The notes under the pieces: generated by a model
Databases searched by the model: none
What the model was told of the DNA's origin: nothing
What the model saw: the letters and a program-made list of their open reading frames with translations, nothing else
Translations under genes and position numbers: made by a program
Shown: piece by piece, positions 1,754 through 15,113 of the stretch
How the letters are laid out: every line of letters starts with the position of its first letter
Numbering within the stretch: position 1 is the stretch's first letter
DNA from: Naegleria gruberi
Taxonomy: Eukaryota
DNA length: 64,000 nucleotides
Reading direction: 5' to 3' (one strand)
NCBI GenBank assembly: GCA_000004985.1
Contig: GG738845.1

Positions 1754-4114
1754 TTATGTACCGAAACGTTTTCTGTCAATAACAGGTGGTAAAAGTTCTT
1801 CTGTGTGAGTATTGTAATCGAATGAAGCCATTATCAGCTCATTACCACAAACAGATGAAAATCCAATCATATCTTCAGTCTTTCCTAATCTGTTTGCTAA
1901 AACATAATCCTTAATTTCAAGAGTACTGGAATCCAGAAGGAAGCAACGAGTCAAAGAGGTAACCAAATAGTACTTGAGTGAAAGTTGATGAAGAGAACTG
2001 ATTACTGCTTGGTTCAATTTTTCAGTAGGGAATGACAATGGAGAAATAATAGTTCTACGCTTGTTAGCATCAAAGACAGTAATGGTATTTGGATTGGAGA
2101 GAGAATAAAAGGCAGGACACACACTATCGCATGGATTTAAAAAGCCAATCTTGTATATAAATCCGTTATGTGTTGGTAATTCTATTTCAAAATGAACCTT
2201 ATTATTCTCAGAGATTAAACTCTCCAATCTATAACACAGTACAAGATTCCCTTTTGATACAATCACATACTTTTCATTAGCAATCAAGCCATTAATGGAA
2301 TTTGAAAATACTCTGAATGGTGAGTTTTCATTTTCGAGTGATGAATCAATCTTTGAGGATGGTAAATGGATTGATTGAACTGTCTTCTTTTCAATATTAA
2401 ATAATTGAAGAGTTGAACAATCTCTGGATGCAATTAAAAGGTGATTATTTCCTGCAAATGCTGTATAGTGACCAGGTACAACATTATATTCCTTATCAGA
2501 AAGGTTAATCTTATTTTCCAAAGAAACTCCTCCATTTTCATCTGTGGCAAGTGTTATTAAATAAGTGCAATCAACTGAAGCGACAGATATATGCTTTCCA
2601 TTTGGTGAAATGTCTGACATGGAACTATACCAGTTACCCTTACTTTTAATTTTGACTTGCATTAAAATTGAGGCTGGGTCATTCAAACTAACTTGTCTAT
2701 TCTCGATATTAGATTCTGGCAACTTTAAAAGTGTAATTTGATTAGCCAAATTATCATAAAGAGCCAATCTTGAACCCGTAGCAACTTTTAGCAAATCTCT
2801 GTTTGGTTTGATTCTTATTCTGTCAAAGATTTTATCCTTTAAATCTTGTTGTCTATAGAAAATTTCAGTCTTCATTCTCAAAATGGCACAATTAAGACCT
2901 CCAAAGTAAAGAGATTTTTCCTTCTCGCAATATACCATGTCCAATAAATCATGGAGGGATGGTCTCTTTTTAATGACAGAGACATACTTCTTGCCAACTT
3001 CTTTGTACATGGAAATACTTCCATCAACACCTGTTGAATAAATAACACCAGGTTTTTGGATGCAAATTCTCAATACATCACCATCATGTCCCTTAACTGA
3101 GTTAACAATAGCTCCTAAACGATAGTCACAAAAGTGAATATTTCCCTCAGAATCACCAACAACCATAATGCTATCATTGAGTATTTCCATACACCAACAG
3201 AATGAGTTCTTTAAGGAAATTTTGTAGACAAGTGTTCTCTTATTGAGGTCAAAACAATAAACTCCGGTCATCCCACCAACAAGTACCTTATTACCTCCAT
3301 CAATAATCTTCGTGGTTAGCATTCTATGACTATTTTCACAATGCTTATATTTCTTTCCACTAGGTGGTTCATTGGTTCTTGAAGGTGCAAGGAAGAATTT
3401 CAAACTCAAGTCTTCATCGTTAATAAGTCTTACTGCTCCATCTTCACAAGCAATAGCAATTAAATTCTTTTCAGCACAATGATCCATACTCCAAATAGCA
3501 CCTCCCAAAACTGAAGTAGAAATTCTCTTCGGGCTTTGTCTTTCCAAATCCCACTCTGTAATCATTCCATGGAGACCTGCTGTGAAAAGTCTATTATCTC
3601 CTGTCCATATTATTGACTCTATTGTAGTTCCAATCTTTCCTGGTAATCTCTTAATAAGAGTACAATTTTCAATTGGACGATTAGTGTCTACACTACTTTT
3701 TTGACCATCAATTGACCAAATTTCAATTTCACTATTAAACCTAGCAACAGCTAAAAGTGATTGAGTAGGATTAAAACAAAGTCTCTTAATAGCTGAAATG
3801 TGAATATTTTTAGTAACATTTAATTCATCAACAATAAAACTACTATTACGATGTGTTGTTGGTTGATGTTCTCTTTTTACTTTCTTTTCTTCAACATGTT
3901 CAATTGTGTTGTTGTTGTTAGTAGTGGTTGTAATAATTTTGTCTCCATATTTTGCTGTTGTGTTTGCTGATGTTGGTTCACTCACTTCATCTTCACGAGG
4001 AGTTGATTCTAAAACCTTTTTTGCTGAAGAATGCTGTTGTTGATGCTTTCTCTTCTTTGAGGAGTTTGGTGTTGCAACTTTCTTCATTTTTTTTGTAGAG
4101 CAAATTTTCTTCAT
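1754..4114 (-). CDS. UTP4: U3 snoRNP / SSU processome protein UTP4 (Cirhin), WD40
   Basis: There is strong colinear similarity to human cirhin. RLFTAGLHGMITEWDL...GGAIWSMD...IACEDGAVRL matches RLFSAGLNGEIMEYDL...GGPIWSMA...VGCEDGSVKL. The C-terminus PPVIDRKRFGT matches PPPIKKKKFGT. The ORF track N-terminus at 4243 probably over-extends; likely ATGs are at 4114 or 4087 (MKKICS / MKKVATP). Confidence 0.8.
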   Translation of the reverse strand: MKKICSTKKMKKVATPNSSKKRKHQQQHSSAKKVLESTPREDEVSEPTSANTTAKYGDKIITTTTNNNNTIEHVEEKKVKREHQPTTHRNSSFIVDELNVTKNIHISAIKRLCFNPTQSLLAVARFNSEIEIWSIDGQKSSVDTNRPIENCTLIKRLPGKIGTTIESIIWTGDNRLFTAGLHGMITEWDLERQSPKRISTSVLGGAIWSMDHCAEKNLIAIACEDGAVRLINDEDLSLKFFLAPSRTNEPPSGKKYKHCENSHRMLTTKIIDGGNKVLVGGMTGVYCFDLNKRTLVYKISLKNSFCWCMEILNDSIMVVGDSEGNIHFCDYRLGAIVNSVKGHDGDVLRICIQKPGVIYSTGVDGSISMYKEVGKKYVSVIKKRPSLHDLLDMVYCEKEKSLYFGGLNCAILRMKTEIFYRQQDLKDKIFDRIRIKPNRDLLKVATGSRLALYDNLANQITLLKLPESNIENRQVSLNDPASILMQVKIKSKGNWYSSMSDISPNGKHISVASVDCTYLITLATDENGGVSLENKINLSDKEYNVVPGHYTAFAGNNHLLIASRDCSTLQLFNIEKKTVQSIHLPSSKIDSSLENENSPFRVFSNSINGLIANEKYVIVSKGNLVLCYRLESLISENNKVHFEIELPTHNGFIYKIGFLNPCDSVCPAFYSLSNPNTITVFDANKRRTIISPLSFPTEKLNQAVISSLHQLSLKYYLVTSLTRCFLLDSSTLEIKDYVLANRLGKTEDMIGFSSVCGNELIMASFDYNTHTEELLPPVIDRKRFGT

Positions 4115-4287
4115 CAACAAGAAGAATGAAATTAGTGGTGTAAATAAATTGGTGAAAGGAAAATCAGTTCTGACAGCAGAAAAACCGAAGCTAATTGATA
4201 AAGACATTAAATCATCTAACTCTTCATCAAAGTCATTCAACAACGATTATTACTAGCTAAAAATTGAAAAATTCTTCAACAAAAAAA

Positions 4288-5844
4288 ATGAGCGGCATTT
4301 CAGCGTTTTTAGGGCAAGGTGGAAGCAAACCAACTTTCATCCCCTCTAACAATTATAGAGGAGAAAAACCATCAAATAGGCACTCTGAAAAATCATCGGA
4401 TCACTCAGGTGATCATCATGGTGTTTCTTTTGGAGGCTCTTATATTAAACACATTTCCGAAAATGATAGACCAATGAGAAGAAGAGACTATAACAATAGA
4501 GACTCCAACTATAGAGGAAATAATAGAGGAGGTAAAAGAGATTTTAATAATAGAGGCCGTGATTACAGAAAGGATTTTTATGGTGGATATTACAAGAGAG
4601 AAGATGAGTTTGGTTCTAAATCATTGCCTGAAGAAAAGGATGAAGAGTCAAAAGCTGAGGAAGAAGCTTTGGCTCTCAAATTGGCCGAACAAGATGAGTC
4701 TCTCCAAGCAATTGGTTCCGAATTTTTTATTCCTGTCGAACAAGAATATGACATGTTTTTAAAGAAGTTAGTTAATTGGAAAAACGATTCTCACTCAATT
4801 TCACAGAAAATGAACGATGGTGCACAACTCAAACAATTTAGAGAATATGATGAAGAAGCGTCACAGCAAACAAAAGATTTAATGCTTCAGATATTCAAAT
4901 CAAACAGTCAAACTCAAGCTCCAAAGAGTATTTGTGCTACCACTGATAGAGAGCTAACATCTACTTTTAAAAATTCAGTCTCTGACATTCAAGAAGATGT
5001 TGCTAGAGGAAGAAACAAAAATTATGGACTTTTAGATAAGACAATCCTTCACTATGAGGATATCATGTACTCACTGTGGAAAGCTCCACTTGTTACAGAC
5101 AGAAAATCAGAAAAGGATACAGAATCAACTTTGGAAGAGGATAGTTTTGCAAAATTCCATGAAGAATTCGAACGAGAAAATAATGAGAAAAAAGAAATTG
5201 ATACCTTTTCTAAATTTGCCGATGAATTATTCGAAAAATGTACAGACCTATATAGAATTGCAGAAAAAGCTCCACTCTTTGATGTTACCCAAGATGAACA
5301 AATGCAAGAAGCTATTCAATCTGTTATAGATACCTCTAAGAAATCTGTATATAAGAATACCGATGGTCCACACGATGCTGGACATTTATTTTTTGCTGTT
5401 TCTGATTTATTAGGTAGAAAAGATGAGAGAGAATACGCATCAGACAGAAAAGCAGACAAATCACTCACCAACAATAATCCAAAACGATCTCGTGATGACT
5501 ATGAAAGTGAGGAAGAGAATTTGGAAGAAGATAGACAAGTCAAAGCCACCACCACCTTTGAATTACTGGGTGATAGATTCAGGTTATTACCAGAAATTCA
5601 CAAATATGAGAATTATCTAAAACGTTCTATGGGTGTTACTGGACTTGATTACAATGGAAAAACCTCACTCAATAACAGAAAAAAGCAAATACGACTTGAT
5701 TCCTCAGTTGCCATGCGACACGAATGGATGGATAAGGAACCAAAAGAAACTGCTAAGTTGGCTACCCCTCATACCCATCTCTCAAAAATGGTTCTCTCAC
5801 TGAGCGAAAAATGTAAACAAGTTGTAGATAGTCTGCTCTATTAA
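4288..5844 (+). CDS. Hypothetical acidic protein with an N-terminal RG/RGG-rich region
   Basis: This is a long ORF. The first ATG is at 4288, in an aaaaaaaATG context; the track start at 4264 is a TTG. The N-terminus carries an RGG/RG-rich low-complexity stretch (NNRDSNYRGNNRGGKRDFNNRGRDYRKDFYGGYY). No family could be assigned confidently. Confidence 0.45.
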   Translation: MSGISAFLGQGGSKPTFIPSNNYRGEKPSNRHSEKSSDHSGDHHGVSFGGSYIKHISENDRPMRRRDYNNRDSNYRGNNRGGKRDFNNRGRDYRKDFYGGYYKREDEFGSKSLPEEKDEESKAEEEALALKLAEQDESLQAIGSEFFIPVEQEYDMFLKKLVNWKNDSHSISQKMNDGAQLKQFREYDEEASQQTKDLMLQIFKSNSQTQAPKSICATTDRELTSTFKNSVSDIQEDVARGRNKNYGLLDKTILHYEDIMYSLWKAPLVTDRKSEKDTESTLEEDSFAKFHEEFERENNEKKEIDTFSKFADELFEKCTDLYRIAEKAPLFDVTQDEQMQEAIQSVIDTSKKSVYKNTDGPHDAGHLFFAVSDLLGRKDEREYASDRKADKSLTNNNPKRSRDDYESEEENLEEDRQVKATTTFELLGDRFRLLPEIHKYENYLKRSMGVTGLDYNGKTSLNNRKKQIRLDSSVAMRHEWMDKEPKETAKLATPHTHLSKMVLSLSEKCKQVVDSLLY

Positions 5845-5909
5845 AGAAGAATTGTTTTTTACCCCCAAATTAAATTTGATTTTTATTGTTGTAAACTCCC
5901 TTCAAAAAA

Positions 5910-8900
5910 ATGGGTAGAAAGCAAAAGCAGCAAGCTGGTAATTTTGTTTTTTTAATGTCGTCTAGTTGCTCTACCACATTGATAGTAATACTAATTCTTA
6001 CTTCATGTTTTATTATAGGAAATGTTGAGGGATGGAGACCTTTGGCTAGATTTTTACCTATCGGAGGTGATCAAGTCGATGACTTTGGCAACAGAAATGG
6101 ACAATATGCCACACGAAAATTAATTTATTCTTCTAGTAGGATGATTTTGGATGTTTATCCTTCCTCTAATACTTCACAATGTTATGAACAAATAATAGAA
6201 CCGTCCGATATATTACAGATGGATGAAAAAAGTTTGATTTCTCAACAATTTCATATCTTGCAAAGACCTTTTGAAAATGGAGATTTCAACGAACAAATGT
6301 ACAGAACAAAACAAATTGTTAATAGATATAATGTGACAAACCAATTATATATTTTGAAATATGCTAAAACTCAATTACCACAACCATTTAAAATCATACA
6401 AATCCCTAATACCGATGAAAAAATAATGTGCAGAAGAGATGGATATTTAACATCTTTATTATTCGATAATCATCAATCTACCATTTTATACAGTACTGGA
6501 TTTGTAAATCTTTTGGATTGCGTATACGTGGAGGAAAATGGTGTTGATACTATTATTGTTGTTGGTATTCAAAATATTGAAGGAGGAGCTGCCACTGCAA
6601 CCATTATGAAAATTGATTGGAGGAACAGTGCGTCAAGATCAACAACTTTATTTACTCTTCACACATTCGATACAACTTATTTTGCCAGTTTTATTGGAAA
6701 AATAATGTTAACAAAAACTCAATCTATGGTTATTCTTGTTGGATCAACTACCGAAGATATATTAAGGCTTTACCATGTTACCTATAGTTTTGTTTTTTAT
6801 GTTGGAACCATTATTGATCTTCAACAATACTTGCCTCGTACCTATAAGCCTCCTCTACTTTCAAACCAATTGGAATTACCATGTCAAATATTTCAAAATA
6901 ATACAATCACTCTCTATACAGTAGTAATGGAGGAGTATAGATCAATAGCTATTTTAGAAATTAAAGGCGAAGATAAGGGCTCATTCAGTGTTTCAAGAGT
7001 TTTACCCATCTTGGATATTCCTCGAAATGAGAGCTCGATTTCGAACATTTTCCTTCTAAATAATAATGCCAATCTCTTAGCCGTCTCATATGCAAACAGT
7101 ACCAGATATGTGTCACATATTTACGCAGATACTTCTAGCAATAATATGTTAAAATATGAAACAAGAGCATTTGGTATGAAAGATATAGCAAATATAATTA
7201 ATCTAAAACAAGTACACTTTTGCAATGTATTTGATACTATTTTTTTAATGGAAATAAGAGAAAGATCCATTCAAACATTTACTATCACTACAAAGAATCT
7301 CTACCCAGAACTTGTGAATGATATCAAACGATTCGAAAGTGATTGGAGACCTGATAAGATTGATGGCAAAAAAATTCAGGTCTTGGATTTGGTATTCGAT
7401 AGTGATAATTCTACGTACATCAGTTCAAATAGCAGCTCAGTAGCTGATATTAGATATGAGATTGACAATGCTGACATTGGCATCAAAGCATCAGTAATTC
7501 ACTTATTGCGTATTGATTTTGATGTGAAAAGTTTTACAATCAGAGCTATCAATTCACTTTCTATTGTATACTACAATTTACCTTCCAGTGTCACCAAGGA
7601 TCTCTCTTCTTTCTTTCCCTACTCTAACAATACCATAGTTTTTACAATTAATACAGTCAATAACACAGTTGAATATACTGAACTCTTTGAGTTTGATACA
7701 TTCGCATGGATTCAAAATGTAAGAAAAGAATTTAATGATATTAGCACAGACGACACAATGTACATTTTCGACGATCATCTCTATTTAACCAACTCTACAA
7801 CAGGTGCACTCGTTACAAACTTGGAAAATTACAAGATTCAATATATTACATTTCCAAACCTTACTCAAATAGATCCTTTGGATAAAACCGTCAAAATCAG
7901 TACGGTTTTGCATAAGAACATGTCTGAATATCTTGAAACAGTTCCAAAACCTGTTTTTCCACATGAGCAATACATGTTTTTTGCGACCTCAAGAGGTTAC
8001 ATTTACCAAATGTCAATGGAGGGACTAAATTCACAAATAATAACTGAAAATACTATTTTTGTTGGAAACAGCTCGTGGATACCTATGTCAGGCCTATTTT
8101 TCAACCTCCATCTCTACCTTACTTTCTATCCTGGCCATATTCTCGACATTGAATACAAGGAAATATTTTTAAATGGTAAATACCAACTTTATCCTTACAA
8201 GAAGGAATTTTACGAGTTGGCCTTTCTTAATGATATATCAATGGGAAAGAAGTCTACCATGTGGACAGCTCAGCTTGATTGCTATGCTGAGTATACTTAT
8301 TTCACAGGTGATAAGGAGGCAATTTACAAGTTAGAAATGAGAAATGTTCCACTCTCACTGTACGATATTGAATCTGTGAATATTAATAACATTGCAGATA
8401 TGAAAGCATCTGATAATAGTGGTATGCTCTATTTAATAGACTATAACGGTAACATTTTGATAAGAGACATCTCCTTGTATCCTGATGTGAGATTCTATCT
8501 TGTCATTGCAGTAATTTCTCTTTTGGGTATTACTTTACTGGTTGTTAGTATTGTGTGTATTATTCCTGTAATAATGAGATACAGAAGGAGAAAACTCATA
8601 TTTGAGAAGAGAAAGACCTTTAGAGAACTTGTTAAAAACAAGACAACTAATACTAAGTTCATTCTAGAAAGAAGACTCTATGTTGTGGATCCTTATATCT
8701 TATTTGTAAAGAAGAAATATTTTGCTCCCGACATTATCACTCACAGAAGTGTGGGTCCTCATGGTATTATGTTTGAAGCAACTATTCATAACTCGCCAGT
8801 CATGCTCAAAAAGATAACAACCAGTCTCAAAGTGTACAGACAAGATTTGGAAGAGGAAGCAATGAAGTTGGTATCTATACGTCACAAAAATGTACAGAAA

Positions 8901-9734
8901 TATGTTGGATTATCAGTGGATGATCAAAACAACAAGTATATTGTATATGAAAAACTTCCAGATTTTGAAGGATCCCTTAGAGATTACATTGATTATGGCA
9001 TACTCAAACACCAAACAATTTCAGAAGAGAAAATTTCTACTTACGAAAAGTTCTCAATATCATTCCAAGAAAAACTTGTCTTGCTAAGAGATACTATTAA
9101 TGGACTTCAATACCTACACAAAAAGGGAATAACAATGTGGGGCAACTTGAAGCCATCCAATATTCTCATTCATTTTGTTGAGCCCGAAGAAACCACCAAT
9201 ACCATTCAAGAGCATTTGGACAAGTCCTATCTCACTTCCAGTCAAGCCAATTTTATTTCTGGTAGAAATGTAGCAAAAATAACTGATTATGCTTTCCTTC
9301 ACTATTGTAAAGGTGTAATCTATAAGCCAGAAGATTTAATTTATACAAGCCCTGAGGCCCTTGAAAATGAAACATCTAAATCAGAAGCGTCTGTAGATAT
9401 ATATAGTTTCGCTCTTGTAATGTTTGCTCTTATATTTATGATATCTCCATGTGAGGATGTTCCATCAATTAATACCAGCAAGCCATCCATACCATTCGAT
9501 AGTAACAATGACGAGGCAGTATGGGAATGGTTCTCAAACTCATACAGTAACGATGACTATTTAGGAATGCTAAATTACAACATTTTAAATCATGATAATA
9601 CCAAAGTCAAACAGACTACGATTAAGAATATTAAGAAAATAGTTTCCATGATTGAGAAGATGTGGTCGAGTGATCCTTCATCACGCCCATCAATTCGTGA
9701 AGTTATTGAATTGTTCAAAGAAGTTATTGTTTAA
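5910..9734 (+). CDS. Receptor-like type I membrane protein with an intracellular pseudokinase domain
   Basis: It has a signal peptide, a roughly 840-aa ectodomain rich in NxS/T sites, and one TM helix (FYLVIAVISLLGITLLVVSIVCIIPVIM) followed by RRRK. The cytoplasmic part has a kinase fold with degenerate motifs. The Gly loop is HRSVGPHG. HRDLKPxN is replaced by MWGNLKPSN, so the catalytic Asp is Asn. DFG is replaced by DYA and APE by SPE. Confidence 0.6.
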   Translation: MGRKQKQQAGNFVFLMSSSCSTTLIVILILTSCFIIGNVEGWRPLARFLPIGGDQVDDFGNRNGQYATRKLIYSSSRMILDVYPSSNTSQCYEQIIEPSDILQMDEKSLISQQFHILQRPFENGDFNEQMYRTKQIVNRYNVTNQLYILKYAKTQLPQPFKIIQIPNTDEKIMCRRDGYLTSLLFDNHQSTILYSTGFVNLLDCVYVEENGVDTIIVVGIQNIEGGAATATIMKIDWRNSASRSTTLFTLHTFDTTYFASFIGKIMLTKTQSMVILVGSTTEDILRLYHVTYSFVFYVGTIIDLQQYLPRTYKPPLLSNQLELPCQIFQNNTITLYTVVMEEYRSIAILEIKGEDKGSFSVSRVLPILDIPRNESSISNIFLLNNNANLLAVSYANSTRYVSHIYADTSSNNMLKYETRAFGMKDIANIINLKQVHFCNVFDTIFLMEIRERSIQTFTITTKNLYPELVNDIKRFESDWRPDKIDGKKIQVLDLVFDSDNSTYISSNSSSVADIRYEIDNADIGIKASVIHLLRIDFDVKSFTIRAINSLSIVYYNLPSSVTKDLSSFFPYSNNTIVFTINTVNNTVEYTELFEFDTFAWIQNVRKEFNDISTDDTMYIFDDHLYLTNSTTGALVTNLENYKIQYITFPNLTQIDPLDKTVKISTVLHKNMSEYLETVPKPVFPHEQYMFFATSRGYIYQMSMEGLNSQIITENTIFVGNSSWIPMSGLFFNLHLYLTFYPGHILDIEYKEIFLNGKYQLYPYKKEFYELAFLNDISMGKKSTMWTAQLDCYAEYTYFTGDKEAIYKLEMRNVPLSLYDIESVNINNIADMKASDNSGMLYLIDYNGNILIRDISLYPDVRFYLVIAVISLLGITLLVVSIVCIIPVIMRYRRRKLIFEKRKTFRELVKNKTTNTKFILERRLYVVDPYILFVKKKYFAPDIITHRSVGPHGIMFEATIHNSPVMLKKITTSLKVYRQDLEEEAMKLVSIRHKNVQKYVGLSVDDQNNKYIVYEKLPDFEGSLRDYIDYGILKHQTISEEKISTYEKFSISFQEKLVLLRDTINGLQYLHKKGITMWGNLKPSNILIHFVEPEETTNTIQEHLDKSYLTSSQANFISGRNVAKITDYAFLHYCKGVIYKPEDLIYTSPEALENETSKSEASVDIYSFALVMFALIFMISPCEDVPSINTSKPSIPFDSNNDEAVWEWFSNSYSNDDYLGMLNYNILNHDNTKVKQTTIKNIKKIVSMIEKMWSSDPSSRPSIREVIELFKEVIV

Positions 9735-9832
9735 GCAAGTAATTGTAAATCACTGTAATTTTATTTCTGTGGTACAACAAATATGAATGGTCTTTAAACG
9801 AACTCTTCTCAAAAAAAATAAAACTTTGAAAG

Positions 9833-11773
9833 ATGGAGAATAACTATGCACCTTCGCCAAGCACGGATGAACCCTCATTTTTACCTCCTCTTCCATCTGT
9901 TTTTGAATTATTTGAGGGAGTCAAGACGAGAATATATGACCTCCTGAATGAATCGAAAAATATACTGCCTATTGAATATAATAGTATATCTTCAAGGTGT
10001 GTGGCTCTTGTGTTTGATTTTAAAAAAACTGAGCAAATGAATCACCTTACTGAAGAGGATAAGAACTATTATTTATGCAATGTAATGGTTCATGAAATTC
10101 ACGATACCTTGCACTCTTTGCACGATATCGCTGAAGATAAAGTTGTGAAGGGTGAGGAACTTTCCACAAAGGAAGTACAATTTATTAAGGACCTAACAGA
10201 GCAATACAGTACATCATTGGAAGATATTCTACCAGAATTGGAATCAATGACACAATCTAAGGACCATGTTATAATCATGGATTCTGTTGTCGAAGATGGA
10301 AATAGTAATAGTAAAAAAAAGATGGAGTTTATGGAATTGAAAAATAATTTACATGCATTAAGTTTGGACATTATTTCAAAATTTGAAAACACTCATATTG
10401 CAATGGTTAACGAGCAATTTTTGTACTATTGTGTTGTCATTGTTGACAACATGAAAATAAGACATTTGTTCTTGACTAGTTATAGAATATACCTCACCTC
10501 TCAAGATTTAACCATTAAGAAAGTAATTGAATTGTATGACTTGTTGAAAATATCGAAAATTCAAAATGAAAATATAACCATATCAATAATTGGAAATAGA
10601 GGAATGAACATATTCTCAACAGATATTGCTAAACTTAGAGATGAATTATTCAAGGCAACAGATTTGTACAAGACTCCTCTGCAAGATACAAACCATGGCA
10701 ATAATACCGCAACAACATCTACTATGAATATCTCAAATAATAACATTACAAGTCCAAACTCTGAAGATGGTGTAAAAATTCAAGTGCTAATTCGTAAGGC
10801 TGATAAATTGAGACCTTCTCCAAAGAAAAGACAAGATAACCCAATTTTCTATATGGGTATTGGAAATCCTGAACACTTTGGTCAGAATCGTGATGAGAGA
10901 TTGAAAAGTATCAGTGTAAAGTCTGGAAGATCTCCAGAGTGGAATGAACAGTACAATCTTACTATCTATCCAAATAATGAACTATTGTTAGACGTTAGGT
11001 TGTATTCTAAAGTTGGTGCAACAAAGAATGATTTTGCCTATGGTGTTGTCAATATCCCACTCAAAGAAATTCTCTTCCCAAATGACAGTAATGAGATGAA
11101 ACCAGAACTAAAAGGAAAGTGGGAAATTTGGTGTGGTATGAGTAAAACAGACAATAGTAGAAAAGAAGTGATTGGCGACTTGTATGCAACAATCAAGTTA
11201 GAGAGTCAAGTGTTACCAGAATGGCTCAACTCCCAAAAACAAGTTTTCCAATTGCCACTCATTTGCTTGTACAATAGATTTGTAATCTTTGAAAATTGCA
11301 ATGAAGTTCCTTATGTTTATGGTAATATTTCTGATGAGAAGAGTGAAATTGTTGGAATAGTCCAACAATCTTCCAATAATCTTACCAATTTAATTGACAC
11401 AAAGAATCGAAAGAAGATTTACACTTTGGAAAAGAGTTCATTCTTGAAAAAGGAATACACAATAAGAGATGCTCAAGGACATGTATTTGCTAAGTGTTTC
11501 CACAAGATGAAAACAATCAGAAAGAAAAAGATTAGAATGTACCTTGTCAATGGAGAATATTTGTATTCTATGGAAGGAGGTTGTTTTGATGATAAGAAGA
11601 ATAATAATGAAGCTTTGATTTTGAACAGTTTGGGTTATCCAGTTGCTAGTGTTTTGTTTGGTGACAAGATTAATCCAAGAGGAAATATGATGATAGTCAC
11701 TGTTTTAGATTCTCTGGTAGATCGACCTTTATTAGTAACTTTTTGTTTGTATGTGTTGAGAACAAGTAATTAA
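9833..11773 (+). CDS. C2 domain-containing protein, function unknown
   Basis: It is a single 646-aa ORF with an ATG in an A-rich context. The central region resembles a C2 beta-sandwich (VKIQVLIRKADKL...NPIFYMGIGNPEH...SPEWNEQYNLTIYPNNELLLDVRLYS). Its stop lies only about 20 nt from the stop of the convergent Beclin gene. Confidence 0.5.
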   Translation: MENNYAPSPSTDEPSFLPPLPSVFELFEGVKTRIYDLLNESKNILPIEYNSISSRCVALVFDFKKTEQMNHLTEEDKNYYLCNVMVHEIHDTLHSLHDIAEDKVVKGEELSTKEVQFIKDLTEQYSTSLEDILPELESMTQSKDHVIIMDSVVEDGNSNSKKKMEFMELKNNLHALSLDIISKFENTHIAMVNEQFLYYCVVIVDNMKIRHLFLTSYRIYLTSQDLTIKKVIELYDLLKISKIQNENITISIIGNRGMNIFSTDIAKLRDELFKATDLYKTPLQDTNHGNNTATTSTMNISNNNITSPNSEDGVKIQVLIRKADKLRPSPKKRQDNPIFYMGIGNPEHFGQNRDERLKSISVKSGRSPEWNEQYNLTIYPNNELLLDVRLYSKVGATKNDFAYGVVNIPLKEILFPNDSNEMKPELKGKWEIWCGMSKTDNSRKEVIGDLYATIKLESQVLPEWLNSQKQVFQLPLICLYNRFVIFENCNEVPYVYGNISDEKSEIVGIVQQSSNNLTNLIDTKNRKKIYTLEKSSFLKKEYTIRDAQGHVFAKCFHKMKTIRKKKIRMYLVNGEYLYSMEGGCFDDKKNNNEALILNSLGYPVASVLFGDKINPRGNMMIVTVLDSLVDRPLLVTFCLYVLRTSN

Positions 11774-11793
11774 ATATATTGTAAAATAATAAA

Positions 11794-13773
11794 TTATCTA
11801 GAAACGCAAAAGGAAATCAAATATTTCAAGTCTGTAAGTACATATTTACATGAACGAGTCCAGTTTGCATCATCTCCAAGTTTAATGGTTTTTCCACCAA
11901 TTTTGTCGTCTTGAATCCTGAAAATGAATGAGTATGATTATGAAAATTGTAAAACTTACTTGTAAGGTAACTCAAAATAGGTATCTTGTTTTTCTGCAAA
12001 AGTGCCTATTTCTTTTAGGCAATGAAGAAAAGCAACCATCGCCTTGTCAAACTTAGATTGCCAAAATAAACCGCCATTACTTCCACCTCCGAATAGATCA
12101 TAACTATTCTTGTTATCTAAAGTTTCAATTCTTGAAAAACTGCCCATTGGAATAATCTTGTATTTTGAAAATGCAAAGTGTTTGTGTTTTGACAAGGAGA
12201 AAAGCAAAAGTGCTGCCTGACCCCATGCAGCATTAATTTCATTCCATTCAACGTTTTGTGTTGGTAATCTTCCTAATCTAAAGTTATTGATTGTTCCGAA
12301 ATGGCCTTCATACCAAATGTGGAATGCATCATTAAAAACATTGGTGCTATTGAGTTTTTCCATTTCCTTTGTGACATGTATGATACGTTGTTGGATAGCC
12401 TCTCGTTCTTCATTATAGAGCAAAAGTTCGTTGTGAAAATCATTGTATTCTTTCCAGTAACTCTCTTGAAGGTTTGTAAATTTATCCTCTTTTTCTGTCT
12501 GGTGCTTTTCACGTAAGCTCAACTCTTCTTCCTCTTTTTGTAAAAGGTCCAACTCCTTACGAAGTAATTTCTCTTCTTCCTCTAGTAAGTCGAGCTCATT
12601 TTGTAAATCTGCTTCATTTTTCATACCAGATGATTCTTCAATTATTTTAGATTTGAAATTGGTATAAATAGCTTCTTCCTCCTTTGTCTTTTCCAATTGT
12701 TGATTCAATTGAGATGATACCTGTTCCATACACTCTATACAAAGTGGAGAATCCAATTGAGTAACATCGGATAAATATTGATACAATTGTTTTACATATT
12801 CTACATTCATTTCGTACTCCTCATTGGATATTACACACTTGTCCAAAAAATCAACATCCTCGTTCAATTGATTCATTCTTTGTTGAAGTTTCATTTGTTG
12901 TTGTTCTTTTTCTAATTGTAATTGTCTTAATTGTTGTTGCTCTTTTTTCTTTGCATTTGGATTGAAGGAAAATCTCTTTTTATCCTGTTGAGTCAATTTT
13001 TGTAATGGATTATTTGGTGTTGTTGGTCTAGGATCTTTTACTGCATCTGTTTTTCTTGGCAATGCAAAGGAAACATTTTTTGAGAGAGAAGACGACAAAA
13101 TTTCAGCACTTGGTTGATCTGAATTGGTTGGTAAATAGCCTGAACTTTCATTTAAAGATGTTAAAGGGCTTGATTCATAAGTTCCCATATATGAGGTAGG
13201 AGTAAAAGAATTATCTGTTGGTTGACCATCACTATTTTCAGATTCTTCGAATGATGACATATTCTGATCATAATTTAAATTATAAAATGATGGATCATAA
13301 ACTTTTAAGAATGCTCGTTTTGGAGGATTTTCTTCATCACCATTTGTCTCGAACATTATTTGAACAACCTGATGTTTACACCTATAACAAACAGCACTGT
13401 GTACAGCCTTTTTATACTTTGGAAAATATAACATTTCTGATAATTGTTGAACATCATCAGCCGACAGTTGAGGTGTTGCTTCCGATGATGAAATTGATTG
13501 TAATAAATTTTGATGATGAGGTGGGAGAGGAGTGTGCTGATAATAATAACTAAGAGCTGTTGTTGCTGCATTGATATTACTAACACCTGATGTTCCATTT
13601 GTTGCTTGTTGACTTGTTGAATTGGAGGATCCTGTTGATGTTGTTGTTGACGATCCAAGAATTGCATTCGAAATGTTATTGGTCAACACCTGTGGTGTGT
13701 TGTTATTCGTTCGTAATGCGGAAAGATTCGGCACTGATCGTGTGGAGGATAGTGAACCCTTGTTTTTTCTCAT
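11794..13773 (-). CDS. BECN1: Beclin-1 / Atg6 / Vps30 (PI3K-III complex subunit). Two exons: 11960..13773 and 11794..11917, with a 42-nt intron at about 11918..11959.
   Basis: The BARA domain matches human Beclin. [41 protein letters not shown] matches [41 protein letters not shown]. There is a CxxC...CxxC motif and a coiled coil. After LPYK a GTAAGT...TTTTCAG intron restores the conserved tail. IQDDKIGGKTIKLGDDANWTRSCKYVLTDLKYL aligns with the human tail [37 protein letters not shown]. Confidence 0.85.
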
Positions 13774-13967: not shown

Positions 13968-15113
13968 GTGATAAATGTGGGCAACACAAGTCATCAATTA
14001 ATTGACAAAACAAATACATCCACCCTATCATCAAACGGAATTTGGAGAAAAAGAAATATTTTCTCTCCGATGACTACTTCCTCCACTTCTTACCTCCAAA
14101 ATACAACAACACATTCCTCTCTTTTAACTTGTAATAATAGTAGTATTAAATCATCAAATATTTCAAACAATACCGTAATGAATAATAGTGCCTCCTCTTC
14201 TCCAATGATCAATTCACAAGAAATTCAATCATCACAGGAGGAAGAAAATAGGACACCACTAATCAAGCTAAATGTAAAACCAATACCTAAATTATTTACT
14301 GTTTTAAATTATCCTATAATAATTATAATGTCAATTATGAATGTTTTTTATTCATTATTTGTGAATAGTTGGAACTTTTTGCATTCATTATTTTCTCCCC
14401 CACAATCTAAGAAAAAGAAACAAAGAAAATCAAAGGAATATGATAATTCAACTCAAAATAGTTCCACTTCTTCAAATTCCTCCTCGAGCTCTTTACCCCC
14501 ACTGGGGTTCTTGTCTGTTCTGTCAGGTAGGACAAGCCGTTCCAATTCTAATGCTGAAAAACCAACACAACAATCAAAAAAGTTTTTAATTTTGGACTTG
14601 GATGAAACATTAATTCACGCCAGCACTACACCACCAAGAGCTGATCATGAGAGATTGTACAATTATATTTTGGATGTTCAAATAGATCATGTAAATTGTA
14701 CATTTTATGTTTCTGAAAGGCCTCATTTGAAATTATTTATGGAAAAAGTATGTGAATGGTATAATGTTGTAATTTTTACAGCTAGTGTTAAAAATTATGC
14801 AAACCCAGTCATTGATAGATTATACCATTCTGATAAGATTGTAAAACGATTATTTAGATCATCATGTTATGTCACTGAACATGGTGTCTATGTAAAAGAT
14901 TTGAAAACAGTGACTGATGATCTCAGTAAATGTATGATCATCGACAATAGTCCTATATCTTACATGTGGTACCAAGAAAATGCAATTCCAATTTCAAATT
15001 GGATGGGAGATAATGAACGTGACAGAGCTTTGCTAAATTTACTGCCCTTCTTGGAAGCAATGAGACATTTGGAAGATGTAAAATCAATATTATCTTTTAG
15101 AATTGGTTTATAA
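13968..15113 (+). CDS. CTDNEP1: CTDNEP1/Dullard/Nem1-like membrane-anchored FCP/SCP-family phosphatase
   Basis: It has the DxDxT catalytic motif (FLILDLDETLIHAS). Similarity runs the length of the NIF domain. The C-terminus DRALLNLLPFLEAMRHLEDVKSILS matches Dullard [25 protein letters not shown]. A hydrophobic segment (IIIIMSIMNVFYSLFVNSW) precedes the catalytic domain. The ORF track start is GTG; the true start is uncertain, and the first in-frame ATG is near 14070. Confidence 0.7.
   Translation: MINVGNTSHQLIDKTNTSTLSSNGIWRKRNIFSPMTTSSTSYLQNTTTHSSLLTCNNSSIKSSNISNNTVMNNSASSSPMINSQEIQSSQEEENRTPLIKLNVKPIPKLFTVLNYPIIIIMSIMNVFYSLFVNSWNFLHSLFSPPQSKKKKQRKSKEYDNSTQNSSTSSNSSSSSLPPLGFLSVLSGRTSRSNSNAEKPTQQSKKFLILDLDETLIHASTTPPRADHERLYNYILDVQIDHVNCTFYVSERPHLKLFMEKVCEWYNVVIFTASVKNYANPVIDRLYHSDKIVKRLFRSSCYVTEHGVYVKDLKTVTDDLSKCMIIDNSPISYMWYQENAIPISNWMGDNERDRALLNLLPFLEAMRHLEDVKSILSFRIGL

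Follow-up and report, generated by a model that had tools for sequence, protein, structure and literature searches.

A predicted receptor pseudokinase of Naegleria with an orphan ectodomain and a substituted catalytic aspartate

Pseudokinases account for about 10% of eukaryotic kinomes (PMC13519141) and are recognized by sequence as kinase domains without at least one of the VAIK Lys, the HRD Asp and the DFG Asp (PMC4718504). In HER3 the catalytic Asp166 is replaced by Asn (HRN), and the JH2 domain of the JAKs carries HGN; both bind ATP and act allosterically (PMC4718504, PMC6287396, PMC13519141). ATP-binding HER3 does so by activating a partner kinase (PMC4718504, PMC13259870, PMC13519141), and plants possess many receptor-like pseudokinases of the IRAK family (PMC13519141). 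Receptor pseudokinases are well studied in animals and plants, and hardly at all in free-living excavate protists. Here we describe a gene at positions 5910..9734 (+ strand) of a 64,000-nucleotide stretch of Naegleria gruberi DNA (the window; contig GG738845.1 of GenBank assembly GCA_000004985.1), for which an initial annotation had proposed a receptor-like membrane protein with a catalytically impaired kinase domain. Its product is a predicted type I membrane protein that combines an orphan ectodomain with a cytoplasmic TKL-like kinase domain in which the catalytic Asp has become Asn. It probably works as an ATP-binding receptor pseudokinase, restricted to Naegleria, that serves as a switch, an allosteric activator or a docking platform.

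Kinase fold and catalytic loop

The complete coding sequence of this receptor-like pseudokinase (5910..9734, +) is a 3.8 kb open reading frame (ORF) that begins with ATG and runs without interruption through 1274 amino acids (aa) plus a stop, in AT-rich DNA (about 33% GC) that is dense in genes. Orthologous loci were recovered from N. lovaniensis (L001) and from N. fowleri (L003), the latter encoding the full-length protein P0004 (FDP41_002165); a fourth lineage is represented by the metagenomic contigs L002 (JGI 3300002220) and L004 (ENA ERZ27315067). Identity among these four lineages (N. gruberi, N. lovaniensis, N. fowleri and the metagenomic relative) is only about 42%.

The C-terminal region, aa 945-1274 (8742..9731, +), carries the TKL-like pseudokinase domain. 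Within aa 958-1267 it is matched by the Pfam families PK_Tyr_Ser-Thr (8.7e-14, 51.9 bits against a cut-off of 23.1) and Pkinase (1.7e-13, 51.0 bits against a cut-off of 31.7), both well outside what chance would give. A profile of the orthologous kinase domains retrieved RIPK1 from the PDB (5.6e-11), followed by BRAF and IRAK4. An AlphaFold2 (AF2) model of aa 925-1274, with a predicted local distance difference test score (pLDDT) of 76.3 and a predicted template modelling score (pTM) of 0.81, has a beta-rich N-lobe, an alphaC helix and a helical C-lobe, and its strands and helices put the kinase motifs in their correct places. Foldseek, queried with this model, matched 1962 chains of PDB kinases at E<1e-3, IRAK4 ranking first (1.6e-11). 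Pfam, PDB profile, AF2 and Foldseek agree in the kinase fold that the initial annotation had claimed, and structure prediction, which might have contradicted it, gives a confident bilobal kinase fold. By profile and model, then, the domain is a predicted bilobal kinase of the TKL type, at an identity to TKL kinases of only 16-25% and with the first rank going to RIPK1 by sequence and to IRAK4 by structure. In every orthologue the domain also contains two inserts peculiar to this family. The first, some 30 aa long, separates beta7 from beta8 (aa 1088-1119; 9171..9266, +) and is modelled by AF2 with low confidence; the second, some 40 aa long, lies in the C-lobe (aa ~1195-1235; 9492..9614, +), is helical in the AF2 model and is missing from the other kinases aligned.

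The lesion lies in the catalytic loop, where W1077-G-N1079-L-K-P-S-N1084 (9138..9161, +) is the counterpart of HRDLKPxN. Here Asp has become Asn, Arg has become Gly and His has become Trp, while the Mg-binding Asn (N1084) and the LKP of Ser/Thr type (K1081) are kept. N1079 aligns to the Asp of HKD in RIPK1 and of HRD in active kinases. All four lineages have Asn for the catalytic Asp (PKA D166) and Gly for the HRD Arg; the His of HRD is Trp in N. gruberi only and His in the others. With the HRD Asp replaced by Asn throughout, the domain is a pseudokinase under the sequence definition given above. The motifs ITMWGNLKPSN, TDYA and SPE were confirmed as first read, the profile alignments likewise placing Asn in the position of the catalytic Asp. 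No frameshift or sequencing error that would restore HRD was found, and three independent assemblies of the other lineages encode HGN. HGNLKPSN and DYG are encoded in all three lineages other than N. gruberi, amid synonymous codons that differ, and HGN is thus ancestral for the family.

Around this lesion the site is well preserved. The Gly-rich loop, S947-V-G949-P-H-G952 (8748..8765, +), corresponds to GxGxxG in which Ser has taken the place of the first Gly; it aligns to G-E-G-G-F-G of IRAK4, lies directly before beta2 in the AF2 model, and its GPHGIMF is invariant in the four lineages. Also retained are the beta3 Lys K967 (the VAIK lysine, here in VMLK; 8808..8810, +), the alphaC Glu E983 (8856..8858, +), the metal-binding Asp of D1126-Y-A, the counterpart of DFG (9285..9293, +; DYG in the orthologues), the Glu of S-P-E1149, the counterpart of APE (9348..9356, +), and D1163 and R1259, the equivalents of D220 and R280. 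The gatekeeper, Y1013, is Tyr in three of the four lineages and Phe in the metagenomic one. All the residues that hold ATP and Mg (the second and third Gly of the Gly-rich loop, K967, E983, N1084 and D1126) are in place. The extent of decay had been drawn too wide: the loss of the catalytic Asp stands, as does that of the first Gly in HRSVGPHG, but SxGxxG keeps G949 and G952, and K967, E983, N1084, D1126, E1149, D1163 and R1259 all persist. As read from the alignments, the base Asp is the only catalytic residue missing.

Membrane topology, orphan ectodomain and selection

Hydropathy and the N-termini of the orthologues point to a signal peptide at aa 1-40 (5910..6029, +), with a basic n-region, a hydrophobic core (the hydrophobic stretch covers aa ~12-40) and V-E-G before W41. 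The leaders of N. lovaniensis, N. fowleri and the metagenomic relative are likewise hydrophobic and end in a small residue, G or A, position -3 being V or A, so that in all four lineages the -3/-1 rule is obeyed directly before WRPLARF; the mature N-terminus, WRPLARFLPxGG, shows no variation among orthologues. The protein has a single strong transmembrane (TM) segment by hydropathy, aa 862-889, FYLVIAVISLLGITLLVVSIVCIIPVIM (8493..8576, +), which is followed by RYRRRK in accord with the positive-inside rule. Another hydrophobic stretch, SVDIYSFALVMFALIFMISPC (aa ~1160-1180), lies inside the kinase domain; it was considered as a second TM helix and is read instead as a buried core helix of the kinase fold. 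Between membrane and kinase runs a juxtamembrane linker, aa 890-944 (8577..8741, +), which is basic and conserved near the membrane and poorly conserved in the remainder; its C-terminal part has low pLDDT in an AF2 model that begins at aa 925 and so covers only part of it. Conserved sequons and Cys residues are confined to the N-terminal side of the TM helix. Since these, the positive-inside residues and the rule-compliant signal peptide all support an N-out, C-in orientation, the protein is predicted to be a type I membrane glycoprotein, its localisation being likewise a prediction. The signal peptide, single TM helix and cytoplasmic kinase of the initial annotation are thereby borne out.

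The ectodomain, aa 41-861 (6030..8492, +), measures about 820 aa, to which the earlier figure of about 840 aa is corrected. It is predicted to be mostly beta and contains 13 N-x-S/T sequons and 6 Cys that are invariant across the four lineages. It had been called heavily N-glycosylatable; as the composition alone predicts 9.4 +/- 2.8 sequons, the ectodomain is not statistically enriched in them, and what remains of the claim is that 8 of the 13 keep their position across the four lineages. Its lack of recognisable repeats was upheld, because hhalign comparisons of 130-column segments with each other gave at most 1% probability. A beta-propeller was considered for the ectodomain and dropped for lack of evidence, the same hhalign comparisons having served as the search for propeller blades. 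An AF2 model of the ectodomain, built from a 3-sequence alignment, is nominally nearly all beta and, at pLDDT 34 and pTM 0.27, unusable.

The ectodomain has no match in Pfam or in the PDB at E<=10. A HMMER profile of three orthologous ectodomains, run against 1.84 billion representative proteins, found the N. fowleri/lovaniensis cluster, N. gruberi and the metagenomic relative only, and no paralogue sharing the ectodomain among them. Because this search returned orthologues only and Pfam and the PDB were empty, the ectodomain is, by these comparisons, an orphan restricted to the Naegleria clade. The gene also appears to be single-copy. Within the 64 kb window tblastn with both domains found no paralogue, and the kinase-domain profile found no close one, its only returns being one fragment of an orthologue (P0007) and remote TKL kinases scoring <=48 bits in a word-index, seed-limited search that cannot enumerate the N. 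gruberi kinome. The search for paralogues with intact HRD and DFG that might act as co-receptors, which the initial annotation had suggested, thus came back empty by homologue, ectodomain-profile and seed-limited kinase-profile searches. A 520-aa cytosolic kinase-like protein of a compact eukaryote, P0009 (L005 3182-4744, Logan SRR7812565), likewise carries Asn in place of the catalytic base (SHKNLKPSN) and has DYF for DFG. With just 22% identity to the Naegleria domain, it is probably an independent pseudokinase, and it was set aside as too distant to be an ancestor or paralogue.

Every domain, the dead kinase included, is under strong purifying selection, with dN/dS (the ratio of nonsynonymous to synonymous substitution rates) of about 0.1. 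Between N. lovaniensis and N. fowleri, for which dS is unsaturated at 0.64-0.96, the method of Nei-Gojobori gives 0.11 for the ectodomain, 0.06 for the TM helix plus juxtamembrane region and 0.09 for the kinase domain. Conservation is unevenly distributed along the protein. Over three lineages (N. gruberi, N. lovaniensis and the metagenome) 32% of all positions are invariant, against 68% in the TM helix, the best conserved segment of the protein, 65% in the mature N-terminus and 62% in the membrane-proximal 80 aa of the ectodomain, which form a module at aa 781-860 (8250..8489, +). The kinase N-lobe stands at 44% and the C-lobe at 33%, and the juxtamembrane linker at 20%.

Gene models and genomic surroundings

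From aa 78 to 1274 the ORF is 100% identical to an N. gruberi 'predicted protein' (XP_002683146 / NAEGRDRAFT_45081 / D2UY32), which assigns the window to the nuclear genome of this species. This public model covers aa 78-1274 only: it starts at M78 and omits the stretch 5910-6140, which encodes the signal peptide along with 37 mature residues that are conserved. Because aa 41-77 are nearly invariant among orthologues (GWRPLARFLPxGGDxVDxFGN...), the longer ORF is the real coding sequence, and the N. gruberi gene extends 5' of the public model, starting from aa 1 and not from M78. Two other public models are also flawed. In N. lovaniensis, C9374_005200 is a fusion of the upstream PseudoU_synth_2 gene with the receptor (L001 8161-9999); the ORF of the receptor proper begins at L001 9789 and has a separate leader. 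In N. fowleri, CAG4719661 (P0003) departs just past the TM helix through mis-splicing, while FDP41_002165 is complete. The practical outcome is that the public gene models of N. gruberi and N. lovaniensis and one N. fowleri model need correcting.

A short intron of 68-74 nt interrupts the kinase N-lobe in N. lovaniensis (L001 12869-12936), N. fowleri (L003 11102-11175) and the metagenomic relative (L002 ~4575-4615, with GTAAGT...AG), after ..EEAKQLA/..AKSLV. The N. gruberi gene has no intron at the corresponding site, at about position 8870 of the window. With the intron present in three lineages and absent from this one, it must have been lost or gained within the genus.

None of the neighbours of the pseudokinase gene is functionally linked to it. 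Upstream lie a gene for a WD40 beta-propeller protein (1754-4243, -) and an ORF with no Pfam match (4264-5844). Downstream follow genes for a C2-domain protein (9833-11773, +), a Beclin/Atg6 homologue (11956-13773, -; APG6 BARA 2.2e-51) and a NIF/CTD-like phosphatase (13968-15113, +; 4.6e-48). Farther on, a 1050-aa ORF (18714-21866, -) combines Pkinase (4e-45) and Ribonuc_2-5A (2.5e-29) with an N-terminal beta-propeller-like match; this is an endoplasmic reticulum stress sensor of the IRE1 type, an intact transmembrane kinase that lies 9 kb away and is unrelated to the pseudokinase. The region 1754-13773 shows no synteny with L001, L003 or L002. A PseudoU_synth_2 gene precedes the orthologue in N. 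lovaniensis, N. fowleri and the metagenomic contig, and a PH-domain gene follows it in N. lovaniensis and N. fowleri; both are absent around the N. gruberi gene.

Proposed mode of action and relation to known systems

As an ATP-binding receptor pseudokinase, the Naegleria protein would turn its large orphan ectodomain to the outside or to a lumen. By analogy with HER3 and JAK JH2, the cytoplasmic TKL-derived domain would bind nucleotide and transfer phosphate poorly or not at all, and may thereby act as a conformational switch, an allosteric activator or a docking platform for an unrelated active kinase or another effector. The TM helix, being conserved above the globular domains, indicates a specific intramembrane interaction, with itself or with a partner. 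Together with the membrane-proximal ectodomain it may mediate homo-oligomerisation or contact with a membrane partner, coupling ligand binding to the cytoplasmic domain, and the coupling partner would not be a paralogue. The initial annotation had suggested signalling by scaffolding instead of phosphotransfer, which we also infer. A more specific version is offered tentatively: the protein could be a single-copy sensor of the Naegleria clade whose all-beta ectodomain recognises an environmental or prey cue and signals through the TM and membrane-proximal interface to a non-homologous partner, with the ATP-bound HGN pseudokinase as the switch. If so, the logic of HER3 and JAK JH2 would have been invented independently in Heterolobosea, and the N. 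fowleri protein could be a surface antigen or a drug target.

Several points weigh against a receptor pseudokinase of this kind. Cleavage of the signal peptide is predicted by eye and from hydropathy only, and a plasma-membrane rather than an endomembrane site is presumed from the sequence. Ligand binding is pure conjecture for an ectodomain modelled at pLDDT 34. Full retention of the ATP/Mg site would be equally compatible with residual catalysis. Literature searches, finally, yielded no description of the gene or of receptor pseudokinases in Naegleria, and the locus tags appear in no paper.

Residual catalysis is the core of one rival explanation, that of an atypical yet competent receptor Ser/Thr kinase with low, biologically used phosphorylation of itself or of a substrate. 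The invariance of the ATP/Mg residues, of LKPxN, of the APE Glu and of the D220 and R280 equivalents would fit such an enzyme, as would an N-lobe conserved above the C-lobe (0.44 vs 0.33 invariant), and HER3 and JAK2 JH2, with Asn at the same position, are weakly active in vitro (PMC4718504). However, Asp166 is the catalytic base and Asn in its place is the defining lesion of a pseudokinase; the HRD Arg is lost too, and in N. gruberi also the His; and HER3 reportedly does not need its weak activity in order to signal (PMC4718504). We consider a competent kinase unlikely on this balance. The protein might instead be a surface or endomembrane glycoprotein that works in adhesion, phagocytosis or trafficking and has no part in signalling; its dead kinase would then be only a stable domain for docking or anchoring and would undergo no ligand-induced switching. 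Such a role would suit an ectodomain that is unlike any known ligand-binding domain and a gene that is single-copy and unexpanded, unlike typical receptor families, and it has a parallel in PATMK of Entamoeba, a possible pseudokinase that works in phagocytosis (PMC2211552). Strict conservation of the nucleotide site would be unexpected for a purely structural domain, however, and purifying selection on the kinase domain is as strong as on the ectodomain; we find this explanation somewhat less plausible again than an active enzyme.

That the locus reflects a sequencing or assembly error, or a decaying gene, is effectively excluded. N1079 is one base away from Asp (AAC vs GAC, 9144-9146) and the public gene models are imperfect in three species, which might raise such a suspicion, but the 3.8 kb ORF is uninterrupted, HGN and DYG recur in three other independently assembled lineages, dN/dS is about 0.1, and the W1077 codon differs from a His codon at all three positions.

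The family is conserved across Naegleria, including the brain-eating N. fowleri, and represents a lineage-specific, predicted surface protein of a pathogen. It could serve as a simple model of dead-kinase receptor signalling without a paralogous active partner. It could gain in significance should the ectodomain or the TM interface prove to define a novel module for sensing, or should the protein be of importance in N. fowleri.

Among described systems, HER3 and JAK2 JH2 are the nearest analogues in mechanism. HER3 is, as predicted for the Naegleria protein, a type I receptor that crosses the membrane once and carries a pseudokinase inside the cell. In each of these two proteins the catalytic Asp is Asn, and the beta3 Lys, Mg-binding Asn and DFG Asp persist. 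The two differ in the ectodomain, where no homology is seen, and in the alphaC Glu, which is kept in the Naegleria protein and lost in HER3. They differ also in the loop, which reads NLKPSN, of Ser/Thr type, in Naegleria and HRDLAARN or HRDLRAAN in Tyr kinases. Moreover, the Naegleria protein has no paralogous active partner by profile search and would have arisen independently, within Heterolobosea. Because of its Ser/Thr-type loop and unrelated ectodomain it appears to resemble the HER3 type in its working without being a member of the HER3 family.

The change of HRD to HGN, present in the N. lovaniensis, N. fowleri and metagenomic orthologues and seen as WGN in N. gruberi, is shared with JAK JH2 (PMC6287396). 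JH2 is also an ATP-binding regulatory pseudokinase, a feature that the Naegleria domain may have in common with it. In contrast, JH2 is cytosolic, stands in tandem with an active JH1 behind FERM-SH2, and has DPG and no Lys-Glu salt bridge (PMC13519141, PMC4718504). The HGN common to JAK JH2 and the Naegleria family is convergent.

The best sequence and structure matches of the Naegleria kinase domain lie in the IRAK, RIPK and RAF kinases of the TKL group. Its Tyr gatekeeper aligns with a Tyr of IRAK4 that we take to be the IRAK4 gatekeeper. From TKL kinases, including the plant RLK/Pelle family, it is set apart by an identity of 16-25%, by its two large inserts and by having no LRR, LysM or death domain. 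The transmembrane kinases (TMKs) of Entamoeba histolytica, such as PATMK/TMK96, are also type I membrane proteins of a protist with a cytoplasmic kinase-like domain, and PATMK is a possible pseudokinase (PMC2211552). Unlike the Naegleria protein, which has 6 Cys in 820 aa, no repeats and a single gene copy, they form a large family with ectodomains rich in CXXC repeats, 25 of them in PATMK (PMC2211552). Set beside these systems, the Naegleria protein adds a lineage-specific member to the receptor pseudokinases, a type already well known, and does not establish a new kind of system.

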